A stretch of 64,000 bases of DNA from Escherichia coli (GCF_003018255.1 NZ_CP027440.1); one strand, 5' to 3'; shown: positions 29,509 to 42,060, numbered from the stretch's first letter. Numbers and translations are program-made. Notes: a model not told the origin generated them from the letters alone.

Positions 29509-30453
29509 ATGACAAACTTTACGACCAGCACGCCGCATGACGCATTATTTAAATCCTTTCTCACACACTCTGACACCGCGCGGGATTTTATGGAGATCCA
29601 CTTACCCAAAGATTTACGTGAACTGTGCGATCTCGATAGCTTAAAACTGGAATCCGCCAGCTTTGTCGATGAAAAATTGCGGGCGCTACATTCCGATATT
29701 CTGTGGTCGGTAAAGACCCGTGAAGGCGATGGCTATATTTATGTAGTGATTGAACATCAGAGCCGTGAGGATATTCATATGGCCTTTCGTCTGATGCGAT
29801 ATTCCATGGCGGTGATGCAGCGCCATATCGAACATGATAAACGCCGGCAGCTACCGCTGGTCATCCCGATGCTGTTTTATCACGGTAGCCGTAGTCCTTA
29901 TCCCTGGTCCCTGTGCTGGCTGGACGAATTTGCCGACCCGACTACCGCACGGAAGCTTTATACCGCCGCGTTCCCGCTGGTGGATATCACTGTCGTGCCA
30001 GACGACGAGATTGTGCAGCATCGCAGAGTCGCCCTGTTGGAGTTGATCCAAAAGCATATTCGCCAGCGCGATCTGATGGGGCTTATTGACCAACTGGTAG
30101 TATTACTGGTTACAGAGTGTGCTAATGACAGCCAGATAACTGCGCTGTTAAATTACATTTTACTGACTGGTGATGAAGCGCGTTTTAATGAGTTTATCAG
30201 TGAAATTACCCGTCGACTGCCACAACAAAGGGAGCGAATAATGACGATTGCAGAGCGAATTCATAATGATGGATGGCTGTTAGGGATGGAAAAGGGGAAA
30301 GAAGAAGGGGAACAACGCCTCCTTAGATTGCTTTTGCAGAACGGTGCGGATCCTGAATGGATACAACGATATACTGGACTTTCGGCAGAGCAAATGCAGG
30401 CATTAGAGCAACCCTTGCCTGAAAGCAAGCGCGATCCATGGATCGAGTACTAA
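29509..30453 (+). CDS. rpnD: Recombination-promoting nuclease RpnD (Rpn / transposase_31, PD-(D/E)XK family), apparently intact
   Basis: 314-aa uninterrupted ORF with the Rpn-family core ([21 protein letters not shown]). K-12 carries this locus as the split yjiP/yjiQ pseudogene pair, as I recall. Confidence 0.8.
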
Positions 30454-32544: not shown

Positions 32545-34638
32545 ATGAAAGCTACAGAAGCCCGCCTACTCGATTTTTTAAAACGTTCGCAGCAGTTTGT
32601 TATTCCCATTTATCAACGGACTTATTCATGGACAGAACAACAATGTCGGCAACTTTGGGACGACATCATTCGTGCCGGAAAGCGTGACGATATATCAGCG
32701 CATTTTATCGGTTCGGTTGTTTATATAGAGCAGGGATTGTATCAGGTTTCTGGTATTTCTCCGTTGCTGGTCATTGATGGTCAACAGCGGCTGACGACCG
32801 CAATGTTGCTGATTGAGGCTTTATCACGCCATCTTGGCGAAGACGAAGTTTTTGATGGCTTTTCAGCAATGAAATTGCGTAATTATTATTTACTCAATCC
32901 TTATGAGTCCGGCGAGAAAGGATTTAAATTACTGCTGACCGAGACTGATAAAGACAGTTTGCTGGCGTTAATAAAACAAAGACCAATGCCAGAAAACTAT
33001 TCCCATCGAATAATGGAAAACTTTACTTTCTTTGATGAACAAATTGCCAAACTCGGTGATGACTTGATCCCCTTATGTCGTGGGTTAGCAAAGTTATTAA
33101 TTGTCGATGTGGCGCTTAATCGTGGTCAGGATAATCCGCAACTGATTTTTGAAAGTATGAACTCCACCGGTAAGGCGTTAAGTCAGGCCGATCTGGTGCG
33201 CAATTTTATTCTGATGGGCCTCGAACCAGAGCATCAAACCCGGTTGTATGAAGATCACTGGCGTCCAATGGAAGTCGCTTTTGGTCAGCAAGGTTACAGC
33301 GAATATTTTGACAGCTTTATGCGTCATTATCTGACGGTAAAAACGGGGGAGATCCCTCGGACAGATGAAGTCTATGAGGCATTTAAACTCCATGCCCGCA
33401 GCCAGAGTGTTGCTGAAAAAGGCGTAGATCGGCTGGTTGAAGATATTCACATCTACGCGGAGTATTACTGTGCAATGGCATTGGGAAAAGAAAGTGACAA
33501 ATCGCTTGCTACGGCTTTTCAGGATTTGCGCGAGTTAAAGGTCGATGTGGCATATCCTTTCTTACTGGCGCTTTATCATGACTATAAAAATGGCGATTTG
33601 CCTCACGAAGATTTCCTGAGCATAATTCGTTTAATTGAATCTTATGTTTTCCGCCGTGCAGTATGTGCGATTCCGACGAATTCTCTTAACAAGACGTTTG
33701 CCACTTTTTATAAAGTCATTAATAAAGAAAAATATCTGGAAAGTATTCAGGTACATTTTCTGAATCTGCCTTCATATCGTCGTTTCCCCAACGATGATGA
33801 ATTTAAACGGGAATTAAAAGTTCGCGATCTCTATAACTTCCGTAGTCGCAGCTACTGGTTACGACGACTGGAAAACGATAAACGCAGAGAGCGCGTGGAA
33901 GAGTTTACGATTGAGCATATTATGCCGCAGAACGAAAATCTGTCGGCTAAATGGCGCGAAGAGTTGGGAAGCGACTGGCAGCGTGTGCATAAAGAATTGT
34001 TACATACGTTGGGGAATCTCACTTTAACGCGCTATAACTCCCGCTACAGTGACAGACCTTTCGCGGAAAAACGCGATATTGAAGACGGCTTTAAGCATAG
34101 CCCGCTTTATTTGAATATCGGTCTTGGACAGTGCGAAAAATGGGATGAAGCCGCCATTCACGCCCGAGCCGATCGTCTGGCCGATCTTGCGGTTCAGGTT
34201 TGGCAAGCGCCTGCTCTTCCTGAAGAGGTTTTAGCTGTTTATCGGGCGCAGCCGGAGAACAAAACCAGTTACAGCCTGAGTGATTATCCTTTTCTTGCTG
34301 ATGGTTCGCATAGCCGGGTGTTATTTGATCATCTTCGCGATGAAGTTATGCGCCTGGACGCAGGGATCACGCAGGAAGTATTGAAGCTCTATATTGCGTT
34401 TAAAGCTGAAACGAATTTTGTTGATGTTGTGCCGCAAAAAAGCCGACTGCGATTGTCGCTTAATATGCAGTTTCATGAACTGGTCGATCCGAAAGGTATT
34501 GCCAAAGATGTGACAAATGTTGGGCGATGGGGCAATGGCGATGTGGAAATTGGTTTCAGTGACCTCGCACAACTTCCTTACATTATGGGATTAATTCGTC
34601 AGGCATTTGAAAAACAGATGGAGAACGCGTTGGTATAA
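32545..34638 (+). CDS. DUF262 (ParB-like NTPase) + DUF1524 (His-Me finger nuclease) fusion protein; GmrSD-like putative type IV modification-dependent restriction endonuclease
   Basis: 697-aa ORF. N-terminal DUF262 hallmarks (FVIPIYQRTYSW and the DGQQR motif in LLVIDGQQRLTTAMLL); C-terminal DUF1524 hallmark (FTIEHIMPQN ... LGNLTLTRYN). Sits in the slot that holds yjiT/yjiV/mcrBC in K-12. Confidence 0.8.
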   Translation: MKATEARLLDFLKRSQQFVIPIYQRTYSWTEQQCRQLWDDIIRAGKRDDISAHFIGSVVYIEQGLYQVSGISPLLVIDGQQRLTTAMLLIEALSRHLGEDEVFDGFSAMKLRNYYLLNPYESGEKGFKLLLTETDKDSLLALIKQRPMPENYSHRIMENFTFFDEQIAKLGDDLIPLCRGLAKLLIVDVALNRGQDNPQLIFESMNSTGKALSQADLVRNFILMGLEPEHQTRLYEDHWRPMEVAFGQQGYSEYFDSFMRHYLTVKTGEIPRTDEVYEAFKLHARSQSVAEKGVDRLVEDIHIYAEYYCAMALGKESDKSLATAFQDLRELKVDVAYPFLLALYHDYKNGDLPHEDFLSIIRLIESYVFRRAVCAIPTNSLNKTFATFYKVINKEKYLESIQVHFLNLPSYRRFPNDDEFKRELKVRDLYNFRSRSYWLRRLENDKRRERVEEFTIEHIMPQNENLSAKWREELGSDWQRVHKELLHTLGNLTLTRYNSRYSDRPFAEKRDIEDGFKHSPLYLNIGLGQCEKWDEAAIHARADRLADLAVQVWQAPALPEEVLAVYRAQPENKTSYSLSDYPFLADGSHSRVLFDHLRDEVMRLDAGITQEVLKLYIAFKAETNFVDVVPQKSRLRLSLNMQFHELVDPKGIAKDVTNVGRWGNGDVEIGFSDLAQLPYIMGLIRQAFEKQMENALV

Positions 34639-35119: not shown

Positions 35120-35246
35120 TAAATACAGGGAAAGTCCAGCTAAAAATTAATGAAAATAAGATAGAAGTTAGCGTGAAATATAATTTTTGGTGATGTGAAT
35201 AAAGCGGCTATTGAGCCGCTTTATTGGTTTTATGAGGGCGAGAAAA

Positions 35247-36983
35247 TTAGTTTATCGCCGCGTTAGTCAGTGCGTCTGCAAGGTGCAGTTGGGTTTGTTG
35301 GGCGGTTTTTATACGAGTTTTAAGCTTATCGCATAGTTCATGAAGTAAACCTACTTGTGAAAATATTCTATATTGTTCAGTTAATGGTGGGCATGGGAAT
35401 GAATACAACATTACACTATTTGCTGATAGGTTGGGTTGTGCTGAGCCATTATCAAAGCGGTAAATCTGTGAGCGCCCAAATGGACTGGTTAAATAATTAT
35501 AAATATACCCTCCCATTTCTGTGATAAATGGTCTAATGATCATTAGTGATGAGGCAATAGCTCCTGTTTCATAGGGGGTTACAAAGGCAGTTTTACCAAA
35601 AGTTGCTCCTCGTAGGCAATAAACCAAATCACCTTTTTGAATTTTCCCACTTCTTAATTCATTAAATTTTCCTTCGGTTATAAAATTCATTTCTGTAACC
35701 GTAAGTGTACCATTTTTTTCTATATGTCCAGTATTGATCCAAGGAATACCTTGAGAAACATACTCATTTTTATTGGGATAATTACTTCCACGATCGCCAT
35801 TTATAAACTCTGATGTTAAACCAAATTTACACCACTCCCACCCTTCCGGCAGTTCAAACGGTTTTTCCTCATTGCTAATTGGCGGTAGTGGTTTTTGTTT
35901 TTTTATTTTCCCTTCTTTCACCAGTTGAGCTTTTTCCTGCGCAATTCGTTTGAGCAGTTCAGAGGCGGGTTCGTCATTCGGATCCTGCGGCACAAGTTTA
36001 CCCATTACGGCCAGTTGAAGAATGGTCTGTTTTAACGCATCCACGCTGGCTTCGGTGGTAAATAGGGTGTCGAAATGCTCGCTAATACGCGCCCAGTTTT
36101 CAGCCAGTTCCTCGGCGTTTTGGCTGTCTGTAAGCGTTCCCAACAGGGTTTCAACCAGTTGCTGATGTGCGTCCAGACTGGTCAGGGATTGCTGTTCCAG
36201 TTGGTCGCAGAGAACTGTAAGTTCTCTGATTTTTCTGACAATTTGTTGTTGTTCATTTATAGGCGGTAAAGCGATTATCTGTTGTTCCATTTTTTCTTTA
36301 GTCATATGGAGCATTGCAATACCGTTACCTTGCGATTTTATTTTATCTGTAATGGATAAAAGAAAATCATGTATAAAATATTTGTTTGAGTACTCTTCTG
36401 CAAATAAATTTAATTTCCATATATGGTAGTGATAAATTACTTTTTCTCCTGTCCAAATGAATGGCCCAAAAGATGCGGACCAAGCGTATATTAAATCACC
36501 ATTATTTATATATTTGTTTTCGTCTAATTGGAGGTCAGAGTAATACCACTCATTTGATGTGAATAGATTACCAACACGCAGCAAAGGAGTGCCTGTTTGA
36601 AGCATTTCATGTTTTTTATATGCTCGACCGTTAATAACCTCCATGAGATCTGCAACCCGCACCCACTCCCATCCCTCCGGCAATTCAAACGGCTTCTCTT
36701 CCTCGCTAATTCCTGGCAGTGGTTTTTGCTTTTTAATTTTACCTTGCTTCACCAGCTCTGCTTTTTCCGCAGCAATACGCTTCAGCAGCTCCGACGCCGG
36801 TTCATCATTCGGATCCTGCGGCACCAGTTTACCGCGCACCGCCAGTTCCAGAATCAGCTCACGCAATTTCTTAATGCCATACAAATCAATTTTACCGGAA
36901 CTGCCGCGCCCGGCGGTGGAACGGGTTTGCAACGCCGAGGTCCAGGTTTCCATATGATCAACGATCAGCTTTTCCACACTCAT
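35247..36983 (-). CDS. hsdS: Type I restriction-modification specificity subunit HsdS (non-EcoKI allele; family-IB-like domain order)
   Basis: 578-aa ORF with two variable target-recognition regions. A conserved segment occurs twice, at the N-terminus and in the centre (GKLVPQDPNDEPASELLKRIA.EKA.LVK.GKIKKQKPLP.IS.EEKPFELPEGWEW). Its ATG overlaps the hsdM stop (ATGA). Confidence 0.88.
   Translation of the reverse strand: MSVEKLIVDHMETWTSALQTRSTAGRGSSGKIDLYGIKKLRELILELAVRGKLVPQDPNDEPASELLKRIAAEKAELVKQGKIKKQKPLPGISEEEKPFELPEGWEWVRVADLMEVINGRAYKKHEMLQTGTPLLRVGNLFTSNEWYYSDLQLDENKYINNGDLIYAWSASFGPFIWTGEKVIYHYHIWKLNLFAEEYSNKYFIHDFLLSITDKIKSQGNGIAMLHMTKEKMEQQIIALPPINEQQQIVRKIRELTVLCDQLEQQSLTSLDAHQQLVETLLGTLTDSQNAEELAENWARISEHFDTLFTTEASVDALKQTILQLAVMGKLVPQDPNDEPASELLKRIAQEKAQLVKEGKIKKQKPLPPISNEEKPFELPEGWEWCKFGLTSEFINGDRGSNYPNKNEYVSQGIPWINTGHIEKNGTLTVTEMNFITEGKFNELRSGKIQKGDLVYCLRGATFGKTAFVTPYETGAIASSLMIIRPFITEMGGYIYNYLTSPFGRSQIYRFDNGSAQPNLSANSVMLYSFPCPPLTEQYRIFSQVGLLHELCDKLKTRIKTAQQTQLHLADALTNAAIN
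35832..36020. repeat. Internal direct repeat of hsdS, copy 2 (central conserved region)
   Basis: About 190 bp of high DNA identity to 36663-36852, including the shared core TCATTCGGATCCTGCGGCAC. Confidence 0.8.
36663..36852. repeat. Internal direct repeat of hsdS, copy 1 (N-terminal conserved region)
   Basis: Direct repeat partner of 35832-36020. Confidence 0.8.
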
Positions 36984-38452
36984 CAGTTAACCTCCTTGCC
37001 AGACAGCGCAGCGCCAAGAATATCGCGCAGTTGATTACGCAGCGTCTGGATCTCCGCCTGCTGTTTTGCATACTGCGCTAACAGTTCGTCCGGGTCATGG
37101 CTGACGGTTTCCGCCTGATGTGGGTTTTTAATATCCAGATTGAAGTTACGCGCAATCACGTCATCAATGCTGACTTTCCACGCTTGCTCATTCTCGATGC
37201 GGCTGGCAAAACCATCGGCCTCGTTACCCCACCAGTCAATCTCCGCCTGAAACTCTTCGAACTTCATCGGCTTGGTTTTACTGTAATTTTTCACGCCCGC
37301 CGGATACGGATGCTCATAGAACCAAATCTCTTTGGTTGGCTGACCTTTGGTAAAAAACAACAGGTTGGTTTTAATGCCGGTATAGGGGTTAAACACACCA
37401 TTCGGTAAACGCACGATGGTATGCAGATTGCACTCTTCGGTAAGCAGCTTTTTGATTTTGGTTTTAACGCCTTCGCCAAATAGCGTGCCATCCGGCAATA
37501 CCACCGCCGCGCGACCGTTTTTCGCCAGTACTTCCACAATCAGTTGCAGAAACAGATCCGCTGTTTCGCGGGTTTGCATCTCTGCCGGAAAGTTCTTCTC
37601 AATACCGTCTTCTTCCGTGCCACCAAACGGCGGGTTGGTAACAATGACATCCAGTTGCTCATCCCAGGAGGAAAGCGGTTTGTTCAGGGTGTTGTCGTGA
37701 CGAATTTGTACAGGCACTTCAATGCCGTGCAGCAGCATATTGGTGGTCGCCAGCAGGTGCGGAAGCTGTTTTTTCTCGACACCGTGGATCTGTTGTTGCA
37801 GCGTCTGATGATCGGCGACGCTCTTCACGTATTTGTTCTTTACATGATCGAACGCGCAGGCAAGAAAACCGCCCGTACCGCAGGCCGGGTCCATAATGGA
37901 TTCGCCGAGTTTCGGATCAACGCGATCCACCATAAAGCGAGTGACGGCGCGTGGCGTATAGAATTCGCCAGCATTGCCCGCAGATTGCAGATCTTTAAGG
38001 ATCTGTTCGTAAATATCACCAAACAGATGGCGTTCGCTGGCGCTGGTAAAGTCAATTTCGTTCAGCTTGTTGATCACCTGGCGCAGTAGCGTACCGTTTT
38101 TCATATAGTTATAGGCATCGCTGAACGCCTGCTTCACCACGTAGCCGCGTGGGTTTTTATCGATAGGCGCAGTGAGGTTTTTCAACGCCGGGAACAGATC
38201 ATCATTAACGAATTCCAGCAGGGAATCACCGGTAATGCCCTGAGCGTTTGCGGCCCAACTGCGCCATAAATAACGCTGTGGGATCGGATATTGATAGTTA
38301 TCCTGCTCCAGTTCCAGCGCCTCTTCCTGGGCATCGAAGATTTTCAAAAACAGCAGCCAGGAGAGCTGACCGAGACGCTGCGCATCGCCATCCACACCGG
38401 CATCTTTGCGCATAATATCTTGTAATGATTTGATTACTGAACTGATAGACAT
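36983..38452 (-). CDS. hsdM: Type I restriction-modification N6-adenine DNA methyltransferase HsdM (non-EcoKI allele)
   Basis: SAM-binding motif I (DPACGTGGFL) and catalytic motif IV (VVTNPPFGG). Start trimmed to MSISSVIKSL (489 aa). Confidence 0.88.
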   Translation of the reverse strand: MSISSVIKSLQDIMRKDAGVDGDAQRLGQLSWLLFLKIFDAQEEALELEQDNYQYPIPQRYLWRSWAANAQGITGDSLLEFVNDDLFPALKNLTAPIDKNPRGYVVKQAFSDAYNYMKNGTLLRQVINKLNEIDFTSASERHLFGDIYEQILKDLQSAGNAGEFYTPRAVTRFMVDRVDPKLGESIMDPACGTGGFLACAFDHVKNKYVKSVADHQTLQQQIHGVEKKQLPHLLATTNMLLHGIEVPVQIRHDNTLNKPLSSWDEQLDVIVTNPPFGGTEEDGIEKNFPAEMQTRETADLFLQLIVEVLAKNGRAAVVLPDGTLFGEGVKTKIKKLLTEECNLHTIVRLPNGVFNPYTGIKTNLLFFTKGQPTKEIWFYEHPYPAGVKNYSKTKPMKFEEFQAEIDWWGNEADGFASRIENEQAWKVSIDDVIARNFNLDIKNPHQAETVSHDPDELLAQYAKQQAEIQTLRNQLRDILGAALSGKEVN

Positions 38453-38518: not shown

Positions 38519-40951
38519 TTAAGCAGAGCGGGGCGGTAATTGGTAGATTTCGTTTTCCAGCTCGCTGAGCGCCTGATTATACCCGTTACGGTCGCCAAAT
38601 CCGGTTTTAATAATCTCCGGTAAGGTGCCCATGCTGTCGAATGGTTTAAGTTTCAGCACCTGAATACTTTCGATCTCCTGTACGCCCGCATCGGCGTATT
38701 TATCCAGCAGATTATCGAGCACGGCTTGCGCTGCTTCAGAGTATTTTGTGAAGTAGTTCCGCTTGCGCACGTTCTCGGCGCGCTCTTTGCGGGTTAACGG
38801 CGGCTGACCATACACTACGTGGCAAAGCATGTCGAACGGGTCGAGATCTTTACCGACTTCTTCTGCCAGTACTTCCCAGATGATCCCCTGTTGTTCCAGC
38901 TCGTGAATGATCGCTTCTTTGCGATCGGCGTCCTGCCACTTGCGGGTAAAGTCATCCAGCGAGGCATATTCTTTGAGCAGTGTTTTGCGGGTGTAATCTT
39001 TAAAAGATTCGGTAACCAGTTTACCGTCGGCATCGTAATACTGAACACGCTGCGCAATAACGCCCACCGCTACACCGTTGACGTGAAACTTGCGGATTTT
39101 CTTCTCGTCTTCTTCCGGAAGTGGGCCGACATCATCGGTATCGGTAACCTGGTATGGTGGCGCAGGCGGTTCATCAACGCCTGTTACCTGTTCGTCGTCA
39201 TGTTCGCTGATTTCTTCGAGTTTCTCTTCAAAATCAGATTCTGGATCGGCGATATCCTCTGATGTGGTATCCATGACTTTTTCGGGAATGCCATCGAAAC
39301 GCTCATCGGCAAACAGTTCGGTGGCTTTTTTAAAGTCGAGGATGGTAAACCAGAGTTTGCCGTAACGTTCGTCGATGCGTGTACCACGACCGATAATTTG
39401 CTTGAATTTGGTCATCGACTGGATGTTCTGGTCCAGTACTACCAGTTTGCAGGTTTTAGCATCCACACCAGTGGTCATCAGCTCTGAAGTGGTCGCGATA
39501 ACCGGGTACGCTTTTTTCGGGTTGATGAAGTTATCCAACTGAGCTTTGCCAATTTCATCATCGCCGGTGATTTTCATGACGTATTTGTCGTTCTTTTTCA
39601 CCTGCTCCGGGTTGAGATTCACCAGGGCGCGGCGCATACGTTCTGCATGATCGATGTCGTTACAGAAGACGATGGTTTTATCCATCGGGTTGGTGCGCTT
39701 GAGGTAGTCGGTAATGGTTCTGGCAACCAGTTCTGTCCGTTCGTCGATTACCATCGTGCGATCGAAATCTTTCTGGTTATAGATACGATCGTCGATCACT
39801 TCGCCGTTTAAGTCAGTTTGCCCTTTGGTTGGGCGCCAGCCTTGCAGATCAACATCAATATCAACACGGACAACTTTATAAGGGGCGAGGAAGCCGTCTT
39901 CGATCCCTTCTTTTAGCGAGTAGACGTAAACCGGATCGCCGAAGTAATCCGTGCTGGAGACTTCATGCGTCTCTTTTGGCGTGGCGGTTAAGCCAATTTG
40001 GGTGGCGGAACTGAAATAATCAAGGATCTCTCGCCAGGCGCTGTCTTCGGATGCGCTGCCGCGATGGCATTCGTCGATCACGATCAGATCGAAGAAATCT
40101 GGTGCGACTTGTTTAAACGCTTTTTGGTCTTCCTCCGGGCCAGTTATAGCCTGATAGAGCGCGAGGTGAATTTCATAAGCGGGATCAATGGTGCGTCCGC
40201 TGACTTTGGTCATTGCCGTACCAAATGGCTGGAAATCATTATTTTTGGTTTGGTCGACCAGAATGTTGCGATCGGCAAGGAACAAAATGCGTTTTTTATT
40301 TTTTGATTTCCACAGGCGCCAGATGATCTGGAATGCGGTATAGGTTTTCCCTGTTCCGGTCGCCATGACCAGCAGAACGCGGTTTTGCCCGTTGGAGACG
40401 GCTTCAATGGTTTTGTTGATTGCCTGAAGCTGGTAATAACGAGGCGATTTGCCGCTGCCATCGTCGTAATAGTCCTGAGTAATCACCGGAAGCTGAGCTT
40501 GTGTGTATCCTTTCCAGAGGCAGAATTTTTGCCAGAGTTCAGCGGGGGAGGGGAAGTCATCCAGCGTTATTTGCTTTTCAAGGCATTCACCTTCAGCTGC
40601 GGTGGCATCGCGGAAGATAAAGCCATCACCGTTGGTGGCAAAAACAAAAGGAACGTCCAGCAGGCGCGCATATTCAATGCCCTGTTGCATCCCTTTGCCA
40701 ATTTCATGTTTGTTGGCTTTTGCTTCAATCACGGCTAAGGGAATGCCTGGTTTGTGATACAGCACGATGTCAGCAGATTTTACCGTTCTGCGTGCCGCAA
40801 CTTTACCACGTACGATGACTTTACCGTTCCGGAGTTTGACCTCCTGTCTGATTTGCGTTGTGTTGTCCCAGCCTGCATTGAGAATGGCTGGCATAACGCA
40901 TTTGGTAATGATGTCTGCTTCCGTCAGGTTACTTAGGTTCAGTTCCGCCAT
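38519..40951 (-). CDS. hsdR: Type I restriction-modification endonuclease/translocase HsdR (810 aa, non-EcoKI; family-IB-like)
   Basis: N-terminal PD-(D/E)XK nuclease region ([19 protein letters not shown]), SF2 helicase Walker A (MATGTGKT) and motif II (DECHR). Much shorter than the roughly 1170-aa EcoKI HsdR. Confidence 0.88.
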
Positions 40952-41091
40952 GGGGTGTTCTCATCTAAATGCGATGCGTAAATTCTACACAGAAAAATAG
41001 ATGAATTCATCTGTTCAAAGAGTATTATCAGCGTTAAGTCACTGTTTTAAAGGTATTCTTGAGTTTCATCAATAGCTGGATAAGGATTCAT

Positions 41092-42060
41092 ATGGAGAAT
41101 GTTCGGTTCTTGCAAGGAGTGAAACAATATTTTTGTACTAAGGCATTAGATGTCATTCTGCTAATTTATCTACTCCTTGGTTTTATACTTCTCCCTTATA
41201 AATATCTGTGGAAAGATATTATTTTATCTCTGTACTTTGTTGGTATTCTTCTTTATGCATTAGTGGAAGAAAATCGCATTGCAGAATATATGGGGTATTT
41301 TGTTAAGTTCAGTAATAAAAACAGGTTGAATAGTTGTGCTGCCTGGTGTTCACTTATTGCATGGTTTATATTTTTGTTTTTTGTGCTTTCAATTAATATT
41401 TTTCCAGTCAGTGCCTCTGTATATATTTTTAGTGCTTTTTCATTATTTGTTTTTCTGGGGGGTATTTTTATTATATTAGAGTTAGAGTTTAAAGAAAATA
41501 AAAAATTAATGATTATTAGGTCTGTGACTATAGCAGTCATGCCAATTATATATTTATTCACAAGTAGTTATGCTTCCAGTTTATTTTTAAGTTTGAGTAA
41601 TCTAAACATTACGCTAACTCCATGGGTTGAGTATTTCTGGAAAGGGATGGTTTTTATGTTGCTTTTCTTCATGTTAATGCAACTTATTATCTATTTTGCT
41701 TTTTTAACTCTGGGGACTAAATTAAGTGTGTATAGGTTGTTTATACTTGCCGGAGCATTTGTAGTATCTACTTTTTTAGTGGCTTTTGCTTTAAAAAATG
41801 TAGAAGGTATTTCGTACTACGTTTTAAAAAGCACCATAGATTTTGAATGGCGTAATCAGATTAAATGTGGCCAGTTGAATATTTCACGTTCGAATGAAAA
41901 GTATTTTGGGTTTAATACTGATAAATATACTGTATTTTATTCCGGCAGAGATGGTAAATGGGGCTTTGATGAGTTGAAATGTAAGAAAGGTTCTGACAGG
42001 AGAGATGCATATTCTATTGAGAATGTCTCAGAATATAACGTGCCTGGATGGCTGAAATAA
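41092..42060 (+). CDS. Hypothetical multi-pass membrane protein with C-terminal soluble domain, strongly AT-rich (foreign composition); occupies the position of mrr in K-12
   Basis: ORF-track frame 41059-42060 (TTG start); trimmed to ATG at 41092, preceded by AAGGA. At least six hydrophobic helices (e.g. ILLIYLLLGFILLP, IAWFIFLFFVLSINIF, MVFMLLFFMLMQLIIYFAFLTL), then a charged C-terminal tail of about 80 aa. I recognise no catalytic motif. Confidence 0.6.
   Translation: MENVRFLQGVKQYFCTKALDVILLIYLLLGFILLPYKYLWKDIILSLYFVGILLYALVEENRIAEYMGYFVKFSNKNRLNSCAAWCSLIAWFIFLFFVLSINIFPVSASVYIFSAFSLFVFLGGIFIILELEFKENKKLMIIRSVTIAVMPIIYLFTSSYASSLFLSLSNLNITLTPWVEYFWKGMVFMLLFFMLMQLIIYFAFLTLGTKLSVYRLFILAGAFVVSTFLVAFALKNVEGISYYVLKSTIDFEWRNQIKCGQLNISRSNEKYFGFNTDKYTVFYSGRDGKWGFDELKCKKGSDRRDAYSIENVSEYNVPGWLK

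Follow-up and report, generated by a model that had tools for sequence, protein, structure and literature searches.

Two long, similar segments lie within hsdS, the specificity gene of a type I restriction-modification system in Escherichia coli, and they raise the question of whether this gene can rearrange its own specificity. An earlier note on this DNA had placed the segments at 35832-36020 and 36663-36852 and held that they are substrates for recombination or slippage with each other, by which a target-recognition domain (TRD) could be deleted or swapped. We analysed the window, that is, the whole 64-kb stretch of DNA that contains the gene (64,000 nucleotides), and compared hsdS with its relatives. 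Our reading, to which we give a probability of roughly 0.9, is that the segments stem from an ancient duplication held by selection on the protein, and that they act as boundaries for the reassortment of TRDs between alleles.

A duplicated segment in a type IB specificity gene

In this window, hsdS belongs to an hsdR-hsdM-hsdS operon with an EcoAI/EcoEI-type HsdR (Table 1), and the stop codon of hsdM overlaps the start codon of hsdS by 1 nt. Pfam searches returned two Methylase_S matches in HsdS (E 1.7e-33), an N6_Mtase match in HsdM, and ResIII and EcoEI_R_C matches in HsdR (E 6e-37). The hsdS product and RefSeq WP_042105856.1, found in E. coli 2014C-3338, are 100% identical. In that strain, yjiA and symE flank the identical locus, whose HsdR bears the annotation "EcoAI/FtnUII family type I restriction enzyme subunit R". 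The system is type IB, in the classical hsd position. HsdS is long (578 aa vs 464 aa for EcoKI HsdS) and HsdM is short (489 aa vs 529 aa for EcoKI HsdM). We found the long N-terminal conserved region and the domain order D2-S1-D1-S2 that are described for type IB (PMC3874165, PMC3510504); the equivalent permutation points in EcoAI HsdS are cp91 and cp380 (PMC3874165). The repeat motif GKLVPQDPNDEPASELL begins at aa 51 and again at aa 328, and the conserved regions share 95-100% DNA identity with the allele of strain A0 34/86, whose EcoAO83I system is type IB by experiment (PMC2481252). On sequence criteria, HsdS would count as a member of the type IB (EcoAI) family, for which the strict classical definition is subunit complementation and antibody cross-reactivity.

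Genes of this type are common, and this particular allele is not. A type IB hsdS is present in about 980 of 5426 complete E. coli genomes, and the window allele, at 80% or more of its length, in only 7 of the 5426. The identical HsdS protein is recorded from 569 contigs, and near-identical proteins occur in Shigella. Salmonella, Hafnia, and Erwinia have the same pair of TRDs at 82-88% identity, and Vibrio cholerae and Methylotuvimicrobium have it at about 69%. In the literature that we searched, we found no recognition sequence for the O104:H4 type I system (EcoGIV).

Table 1. Features of the hsd locus, with positions counted from the first letter of the window
Feature	Position	Strand	Extent in gene or protein	Remarks
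hsdR	38519..40951	minus	810 aa	EcoAI/EcoEI-type; Pfam ResIII and EcoEI_R_C, RefSeq product name
hsdM	36983..38452	minus	489 aa per RefSeq annotation	ORF reaches 38488
hsdS	35247..36983	minus	578 aa	specificity subunit of a type I restriction-modification system, assigned to type IB (EcoAI family); ORF, Pfam, RefSeq identity
N-terminal conserved region	36663..36983	minus	gene nt 1-321/326, aa 1-107	96-98% DNA identity across E. coli type IB alleles
N-terminal repeat copy	36663..36854	minus	gene nt 130-321, aa 44-107	directly upstream of TRD1
Longest exact run between copies, 20 nt, GTGCCGCAGGATCCGAATGA	36805..36824	minus		in the N-terminal copy; central counterpart at 35974-35993
TRD1, variable	36213..36662	minus	gene nt ~322-771	common to O104:H4 2011C-3493 allele
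Central conserved region	35829..36212	minus	gene nt ~712/772-1155	91-98% identity across alleles; central repeat copy at 3' end
Central repeat copy	35832..36023	minus	gene nt 961-1152, aa 321-384	directly upstream of TRD2
TRD2, variable	35309..35828	minus	gene nt ~1156-1675	common to O26:H11 allele
Short C-terminal conserved region	35247..35308	minus	gene nt 1676-1737	

The repeat was where the earlier note had put it, to within 2-3 nt. It is a single direct-repeat family of 192 nt (35832-36023 and 36663-36854), and its two copies, here called N-terminal and central, are 80% identical in DNA. They start 831 nt apart, which is 277 codons (3 x 277), and thus share a reading frame. The protein segments that they encode are identical at 57 of 64 residues (89%), which bears out the suggestion that a conserved part of HsdS has been duplicated. 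The comparison of hsdS with itself that the note had called for was run as a self-diagonal scan: at an offset of 831, the best 100-nt window had 81 matches, and all other offsets had 50 or fewer. The window has exactly two occurrences of a 35-nt core pattern, both on the minus strand, and 100 dinucleotide shuffles gave none. The hsdS repeat is the sole repeat of at least 60 nt within the 64-kb window, which has no inverted copy or inverted repeat of that length, and Tandem Repeats Finder reported no tandem repeat within 35200-37050. A weaker likeness extends beyond the 64-aa core at an offset of 292, where PPINEQQQIV...LCDQLEQQ resembles PPLTEQYRIF...LCDKLKTR. Given this similarity outside the core, the whole of HsdS is a diverged tandem duplication of a half-S unit, with the 192-nt repeat as its best-kept part.

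A repeat of this kind in type IB HsdS was described by Kannan et al. 1989 and by Weiserova & Ryu 2008 (PMC2481252), and what we see here is that long-known internal duplication of type IB specificity genes. The window gene resembles EcoAI, EcoEI, CfrAI, StySKI, and EcoAO83I in family, position, motif, and the order D2-S1-D1-S2; the repeat cores lie at about aa 50 and about aa 325 in the window HsdS and in the known members alike. The EcoAO83I allele of strain A0 34/86, which we aligned, has two copies that are 79% identical in DNA, like those of the window. The sole difference between the window allele and the documented repeat-bearing type IB proteins is its pair of TRDs.

To place the repeat within the gene, we compared the window gene by pairwise blastn with 10 other E. 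coli alleles. Homology between alleles stops a few nucleotides from the 3' end of each copy, at gene nt 321-326 and 1148-1165. Each copy closes a conserved block at its 3' end and is therefore the segment directly upstream of a TRD. The copies flank TRD1, as the earlier note had said, with the N-terminal copy ending at nt 321, TRD1 at about nt 322-771, and the central copy at nt 961-1152. The TRD1 part of the window gene has no match in most of the other alleles, and TRD2 has a remote similarity to the amino-terminal TRD of EcoKI.

Forces that keep the two copies alike

A predicted structure suggests what each copy contributes to the protein. We examined an AF2 model of HsdS with a mean pLDDT of 78.5, built on a shallow alignment of 20 sequences and of low confidence at residues 1-32. 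The predicted fold matches the solved HsdS structures 1YF2, 3OKG, and 5YBB_D. In the model, the N-terminal copy covers the end of a helix (30-49), the loop RGKLVPQDPNDEP, a second helix (63-79), a 26-aa linker, and the first TRD strand (106-109). The central copy gives the same set of elements: a helix at 311-326, a loop, a helix at 340-356, a linker, and a strand at 383-386. The final stretch of the repeat, EKPFELPEGWEW, aligns in sequence with both TRD starts of the T. tengcongensis HsdS. Each copy would thus form a cassette immediately N-terminal to its TRD, in which the end of a long dimerisation helix leads through the loop GKLVPQDPNDEP into a 17-residue helix, followed by some 26 residues of extended linker and the first beta-strand of the TRD (PFELPEGWEW).

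The DNA of the copies has diverged far more at silent positions than at those that change the protein. Synonymous divergence between them is near saturation (pS 0.64, dS about 1.45), and nonsynonymous divergence is small (pN 0.076, dN about 0.08). The earlier note had allowed that the likeness might prove to be conserved in the protein only. This is nearly the case, with a DNA divergence of 20%, a pS of 0.64, and a longest exact run of 20 nt.

The pattern across alleles shows how the copies relate. Within one gene, DNA identity between the N-terminal and central copies is 78-80% for 10 of 11 E. coli alleles, all but IAI39. Orthologous copies are far more alike, at up to 98.4% (N-terminal) and 99.5% (central), with means of 91% and 87% when IAI39 is included. 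The same seven amino-acid differences separate the two copies in ten E. coli alleles, again with IAI39 as the exception. In their protein sequence, the copies of Salmonella, Hafnia, Erwinia, and Citrobacter also group by position, N-terminal with N-terminal and central with central, and two residues specific to the copies, E/Q at 46 and R/M at 50, are retained as far as Vibrio and Methylotuvimicrobium. Of 10 sites with substitutions found in the window allele alone, 4 agree with the other copy, which is about the level of chance. The orthologue-wise grouping, the seven identical differences, and the chance-level substitutions indicate that the copies do not homogenise each other.

These observations bear on the idea that the repeat arose recently by duplication of DNA, or that continuing gene conversion keeps the pair alike. 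The 80% identity over 192 nt greatly exceeds background, and in distant lineages the two copies have lineage-specific amino acids in common, as concerted evolution would predict; in one related protein (P0165) these shared residues read RIQAEKAKL..EGKLKKEKPLAPI. The synonymous sites, however, are close to saturation not only in E. coli but also in two distant homologues with such shared residues (pS 0.74 and 0.63), orthologous copies cluster across the Enterobacterales, two copy-specific residues persist to Vibrio and Methylotuvimicrobium, and the substitutions specific to the window match the other copy no more often than chance. Gene conversion between the copies is contradicted by the saturated synonymous sites, the orthologue-wise grouping, and the chance-level unique substitutions, and we regard recent duplication or concerted evolution as hardly credible. 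Shared lineage-specific residues at saturated synonymous divergence point to parallel selection on the protein. From this parallel evolution and the symmetry of the subunit, we infer a contact between each copy and one of the pair of identical HsdM subunits.

A further proposal concerns where the sequence came from, and it is compatible with an ancient duplication. The extra sequence specific to type IB in each copy may descend from the C-terminal tail of an HsdM like those of types IA and IC; in the account of Roberts et al. 2012 (PMC3510504), a shift of the hsdM/hsdS frame boundary captured the HsdM tail into hsdS, and duplication followed. The sizes agree, with HsdS 114 aa longer than that of EcoKI, or about two 57-aa inserts, and HsdM 40 aa shorter. 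In a one-sequence search, a fusion of the EcoKI HsdM tail and HsdS N-terminus aligned to aa 71-128 of the window HsdS (E 1e-4), although most of that alignment rests on the start of the TRD (LPEGW), and the part from the HsdM tail is weak. Moreover, the window HsdM keeps a C-terminal helix, which aligns with the C-terminal helix of T. tengcongensis HsdM (5YBB), its tail compared with the repeat by BLASTP gave no significant match (E 0.28-0.5), and a search of solved structures with the repeat yielded no HsdM chain. We consider an origin from the HsdM tail possible but doubtful.

The ancient duplication, by contrast with the origin of its extra sequence, carries our main reading. The copies would be the best-conserved part of an internal duplication of HsdS into two half-S units, a hallmark of type IB. 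Purifying selection on the protein would keep them alike and so maintain the pseudo-two-fold symmetry of HsdS, in which the two copies would each turn the same surface towards one of two identical HsdM subunits.

Exchange between alleles and possible exchange between copies

The earlier note had described recombination at such repeats as a known route by which type I specificity evolves. Recombination in conserved segments is indeed documented (PMC3874165), but the recombination visible here runs between alleles, with no sign of it between the copies. Over nt 1-1155, the window gene is 98.2% identical to the allele of O104:H4 2011C-3493, and over nt 772-1737 it is 98.3% identical to that of O26:H11 FWSEC0001. 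By its sequence, the window allele is a mosaic of an O104:H4-type TRD1 and an O26:H11-type TRD2. In a set of 32 HsdS proteins, drawn from matches to the window gene and therefore biased toward its own TRDs, the window TRD1 (type A1) is paired with 5 types of TRD2 and the window TRD2 (type b1) with 8 types of TRD1. In E. coli genomes, the same TRD2 stands behind TRD1s of at least three lengths. A single crossover point between O104-type and O26-type parents was rejected: the informative sites in the central region form a patchwork, and the sampled O104 and O26 alleles are therefore not the direct parents. In the IAI39 allele, homology to the other alleles breaks inside both repeat copies, just past the ...NDEPA core, and a related protein (P0110) has the same break after this core in the N-terminal copy only. 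The recombination that is visible is between alleles, N-terminal copy with N-terminal copy and central with central, and it reassorts whole TRDs. The mosaicism probably came from homologous recombination in the conserved segments.

Known systems offer a parallel. The type IA hybrids StySQ and StySJ arose when StySB and StySP crossed over within their central conserved region. TRD reassortment of this kind, first shown in type IA with StySQ, has been reproduced in vitro for type IB with StySKI and EcoAI (PMC3874165). In StySQ and StySJ, as in the similarly mosaic window allele, conserved segments between TRDs provide the homology for recombination between alleles, and in neither case is the exchange between the two repeats of one gene. 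The type IA events were observed experimentally, whereas the mosaicism of the window is deduced from natural type IB alleles.

Could the two copies nonetheless recombine with each other? Intragenic homologous recombination or replication slippage would give an in-frame deletion of 831 nt, or the reciprocal duplication, and a changed specificity. The predicted deletion product has 301 aa and consists of the N-terminal region, TRD2, and the C-terminus. We looked for the deletion allele with a 1003-nt query, in which 501 nt (the 3' end of hsdM and hsdS nt 1-321) were joined to 502 nt (the 3' end of hsdS and symE), such that only a deletion allele could join both parts in one place. At a threshold of 80% coverage, it was found in 0 of 5426 complete E. 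coli genomes. A synthetic junction query (the N-terminal region and the start of TRD2) matched 58 genomes over at least 80% of its length; among the 30 matches listed, all were in two pieces that spanned 1452-1485 nt, with a full TRD1 between them. The 301-aa product was not found in a search of 5.8 billion public proteins, which returned fragments, internally started ORFs, and full-length relatives, these last apparently capped by a length filter of the search; matches of 307-331 aa start within the central conserved region, as fragments or as calls with an internal start. As for duplication, 1 of 982 matching records had a second match to the gene, which makes it at most very rare. An apparent insertion near the repeat in H85 proved to be a frameshifted hsdM together with an hsdS disrupted by IS1. 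Exchange between an N-terminal and a central copy would move TRDs between slots, and a comparison of TRD1s with TRD2s therefore tests for it. Among 22 x 22 distinct TRDs, none was common to slot 1 and slot 2; the best identity between a TRD1 and a TRD2 was 37%, over partial length.

The copies do have what such an event would use. They are direct, in frame, and 80% identical, with a 20-nt exact core, and the predicted product retains the N-terminal region, TRD2, and the C-terminal helix intact. Truncated type IC HsdS proteins with a single TRD work as homodimers, as in EcoDXXI, EcoR124I delta-50, and NgoAV, but according to the same review, homodimeric S subunits are unreported outside type IC (PMC3874165). 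Against recombination between the copies also stand the absence of the deletion from the 5426 genomes, about 980 of them with a type IB hsdS, and of the 301-aa protein from the public databases, which sample fixed or common alleles, so that rare deletions at the population level could escape; hybrid copies and concerted evolution were likewise unseen, and the same TRD was never found in both slots. In E. coli, a divergence of 20% with an exact maximum of 20 nt is at or below the minimal efficient processing segment for RecA-dependent recombination, and mismatch repair strongly suppresses recombination at 20% divergence. The proposal that the copies are substrates for each other found no support, and we judge it very improbable as an explanation of this repeat. 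With the 20-nt exact core and 80% identity, recombination between the copies is not impossible. It is similarly a long shot that they occasionally recombine, for example at this core, to give a homodimerising 301-aa HsdS with a single TRD and a palindromic site. If true, type IB would have its first half-S specificity switch, and the event could be transient or counter-selected and hence invisible in assembled genomes.

The systems in which hsdS repeats are known to switch specificity are built differently. In phase-variable type I systems, such as SpnD39III of Streptococcus pneumoniae and that of Mycoplasma pulmonis, repeats inside or beside the conserved regions of hsdS serve to exchange TRDs. 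Invertible systems of this kind need inverted repeats, additional silent copies of hsdS, and usually a site-specific recombinase. The window, in contrast, has one hsdS and direct copies only; inverted repeats of 60 nt or more and additional cassettes are absent from it. In type IC, unequal crossing-over at a 12-bp TAEL tandem repeat changes the specificity of EcoR124I/II (PMC3874165), an intragenic change of the sort that the earlier note envisaged. Those repeats are short, exact, and in tandem, whereas the copies in the window are 831 nt apart and 20% divergent, and no tandem repeat accompanies them. Neither short exact tandem repeats nor natural variants with a deletion or duplication bounded by the repeat, the marks of switching in the type IC manner, were found here.

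Meaning for type IB specificity genes

On our main reading, the two copies would act as conserved module boundaries, and their likeness would not come from mutual exchange of DNA. New bipartite specificities would arise as different hsdS alleles recombine homologously at orthologous copies and so reassort whole TRDs.

This repeat in type IB HsdS has been textbook knowledge since 1989, and the present case has little import beyond correct annotation. That protein-level evolution is parallel in the two copies while their synonymous sites are saturated is a small extra observation, which fits a contact of each copy with one HsdM. The symmetric half-S model of type I specificity subunits rests on this repeat. 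Such repeats mark the module boundaries for TRD reassortment between alleles and are not unstable substrates for recombination within a gene; scans of genomes should accordingly not report them as evidence of phase variation or of specificity switching in progress.

Neighborhood of the hsd operon

The operon and its flanks carry several features that we located from open reading frames and domain content, and these are collected in the table together with two genes from related loci.

Features of the hsd region and of two distant type IB-like loci
Feature	Location	Strand	Remarks
hsdM stop/hsdS start overlap, TGATG	window 36981-36986	-	one base common to both, 36983
Type IV restriction-like protein, 697 aa	window 32545-34638	+	intact ORF; domains GmrSD_N, GmrSD_C, DUF5655
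ORF between hsdR and yjiA, 333 aa	window 41059-42060	+	reference genome gives no product name beyond "hypothetical protein"
Rpn-family (YhgA-like, Transposase_31) recombination-promoting nuclease, 314 aa	window 29509-30453	+	intact in window
DUF559 (Vsr-like) gene, hsdM-hsdS gap	L017 3499-4008
GIY-YIG gene, hsdM-hsdS gap	L018 2519-2809

In type I systems, a one-base overlap between hsdM and hsdS, as seen here, has been linked to translational coupling (PMC3510504). The GmrSD-type ORF adjoins symE and hsdS. In 2014C-3338, the closest complete genome, and in other genomes as well, RefSeq splits the same interval into a 1,164-nt coding sequence and a DUF262 pseudogene. The window and 2014C-3338 are 99.3% identical across 13.7 kb, yet their hsdS genes are 100% identical. 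According to the annotation of the closest reference genome, the Rpn-family nuclease gene is frameshifted there. The protein encoded between hsdR and yjiA appears hydrophobic and high in Ile, Leu, Phe, and Lys, and we found no Pfam match for it.

Interrupted and rearranged type IB loci

Insertion sequences have inactivated type IB hsdS in several E. coli genomes, namely, AR_0118, MSI001, and CP131_Sichuan (loci L011, L013, and L015). In AR_0118 and CP131_Sichuan, the element is IS1, located downstream of the hsdS central region; MSI001 has an IS5-family element (ISKpn26) in place of hsdR, hsdM, and the 5′ portion of hsdS. Two distant type IB-like loci, L017 and L018, carry a small nuclease-family gene between hsdM and hsdS. 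In L017, hsdS also has a TGG-to-TAG stop at the final codon of the central repeat, followed by a remnant of TRD2, the second target-recognition domain.

A cross-family TRD relationship and the repeat core

Residues 377 to 578 of HsdS, comprising TRD2 and the next helix (window 35247-35855), align with residues 5 to 206 of EcoKI HsdS, with a whole-sequence E value of 1.1e-14. In this type IA protein, the matching region is the amino-terminal TRD and the central helix. The TRD relationship crosses families, and the domain occupies the opposite slot.

The IAI39 hsdS allele (L012, locus nt 401-2161) loses its homology to other type IB alleles within both repeat copies, directly after GKLVPQDPNDEPA. 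The related protein P0110 breaks at the same point, but in the N copy only. The TRD modules of the IAI39 allele and P0110 bring their own helix and linker, which points to the best-conserved core of the repeat as a possible recombination junction in its own right.
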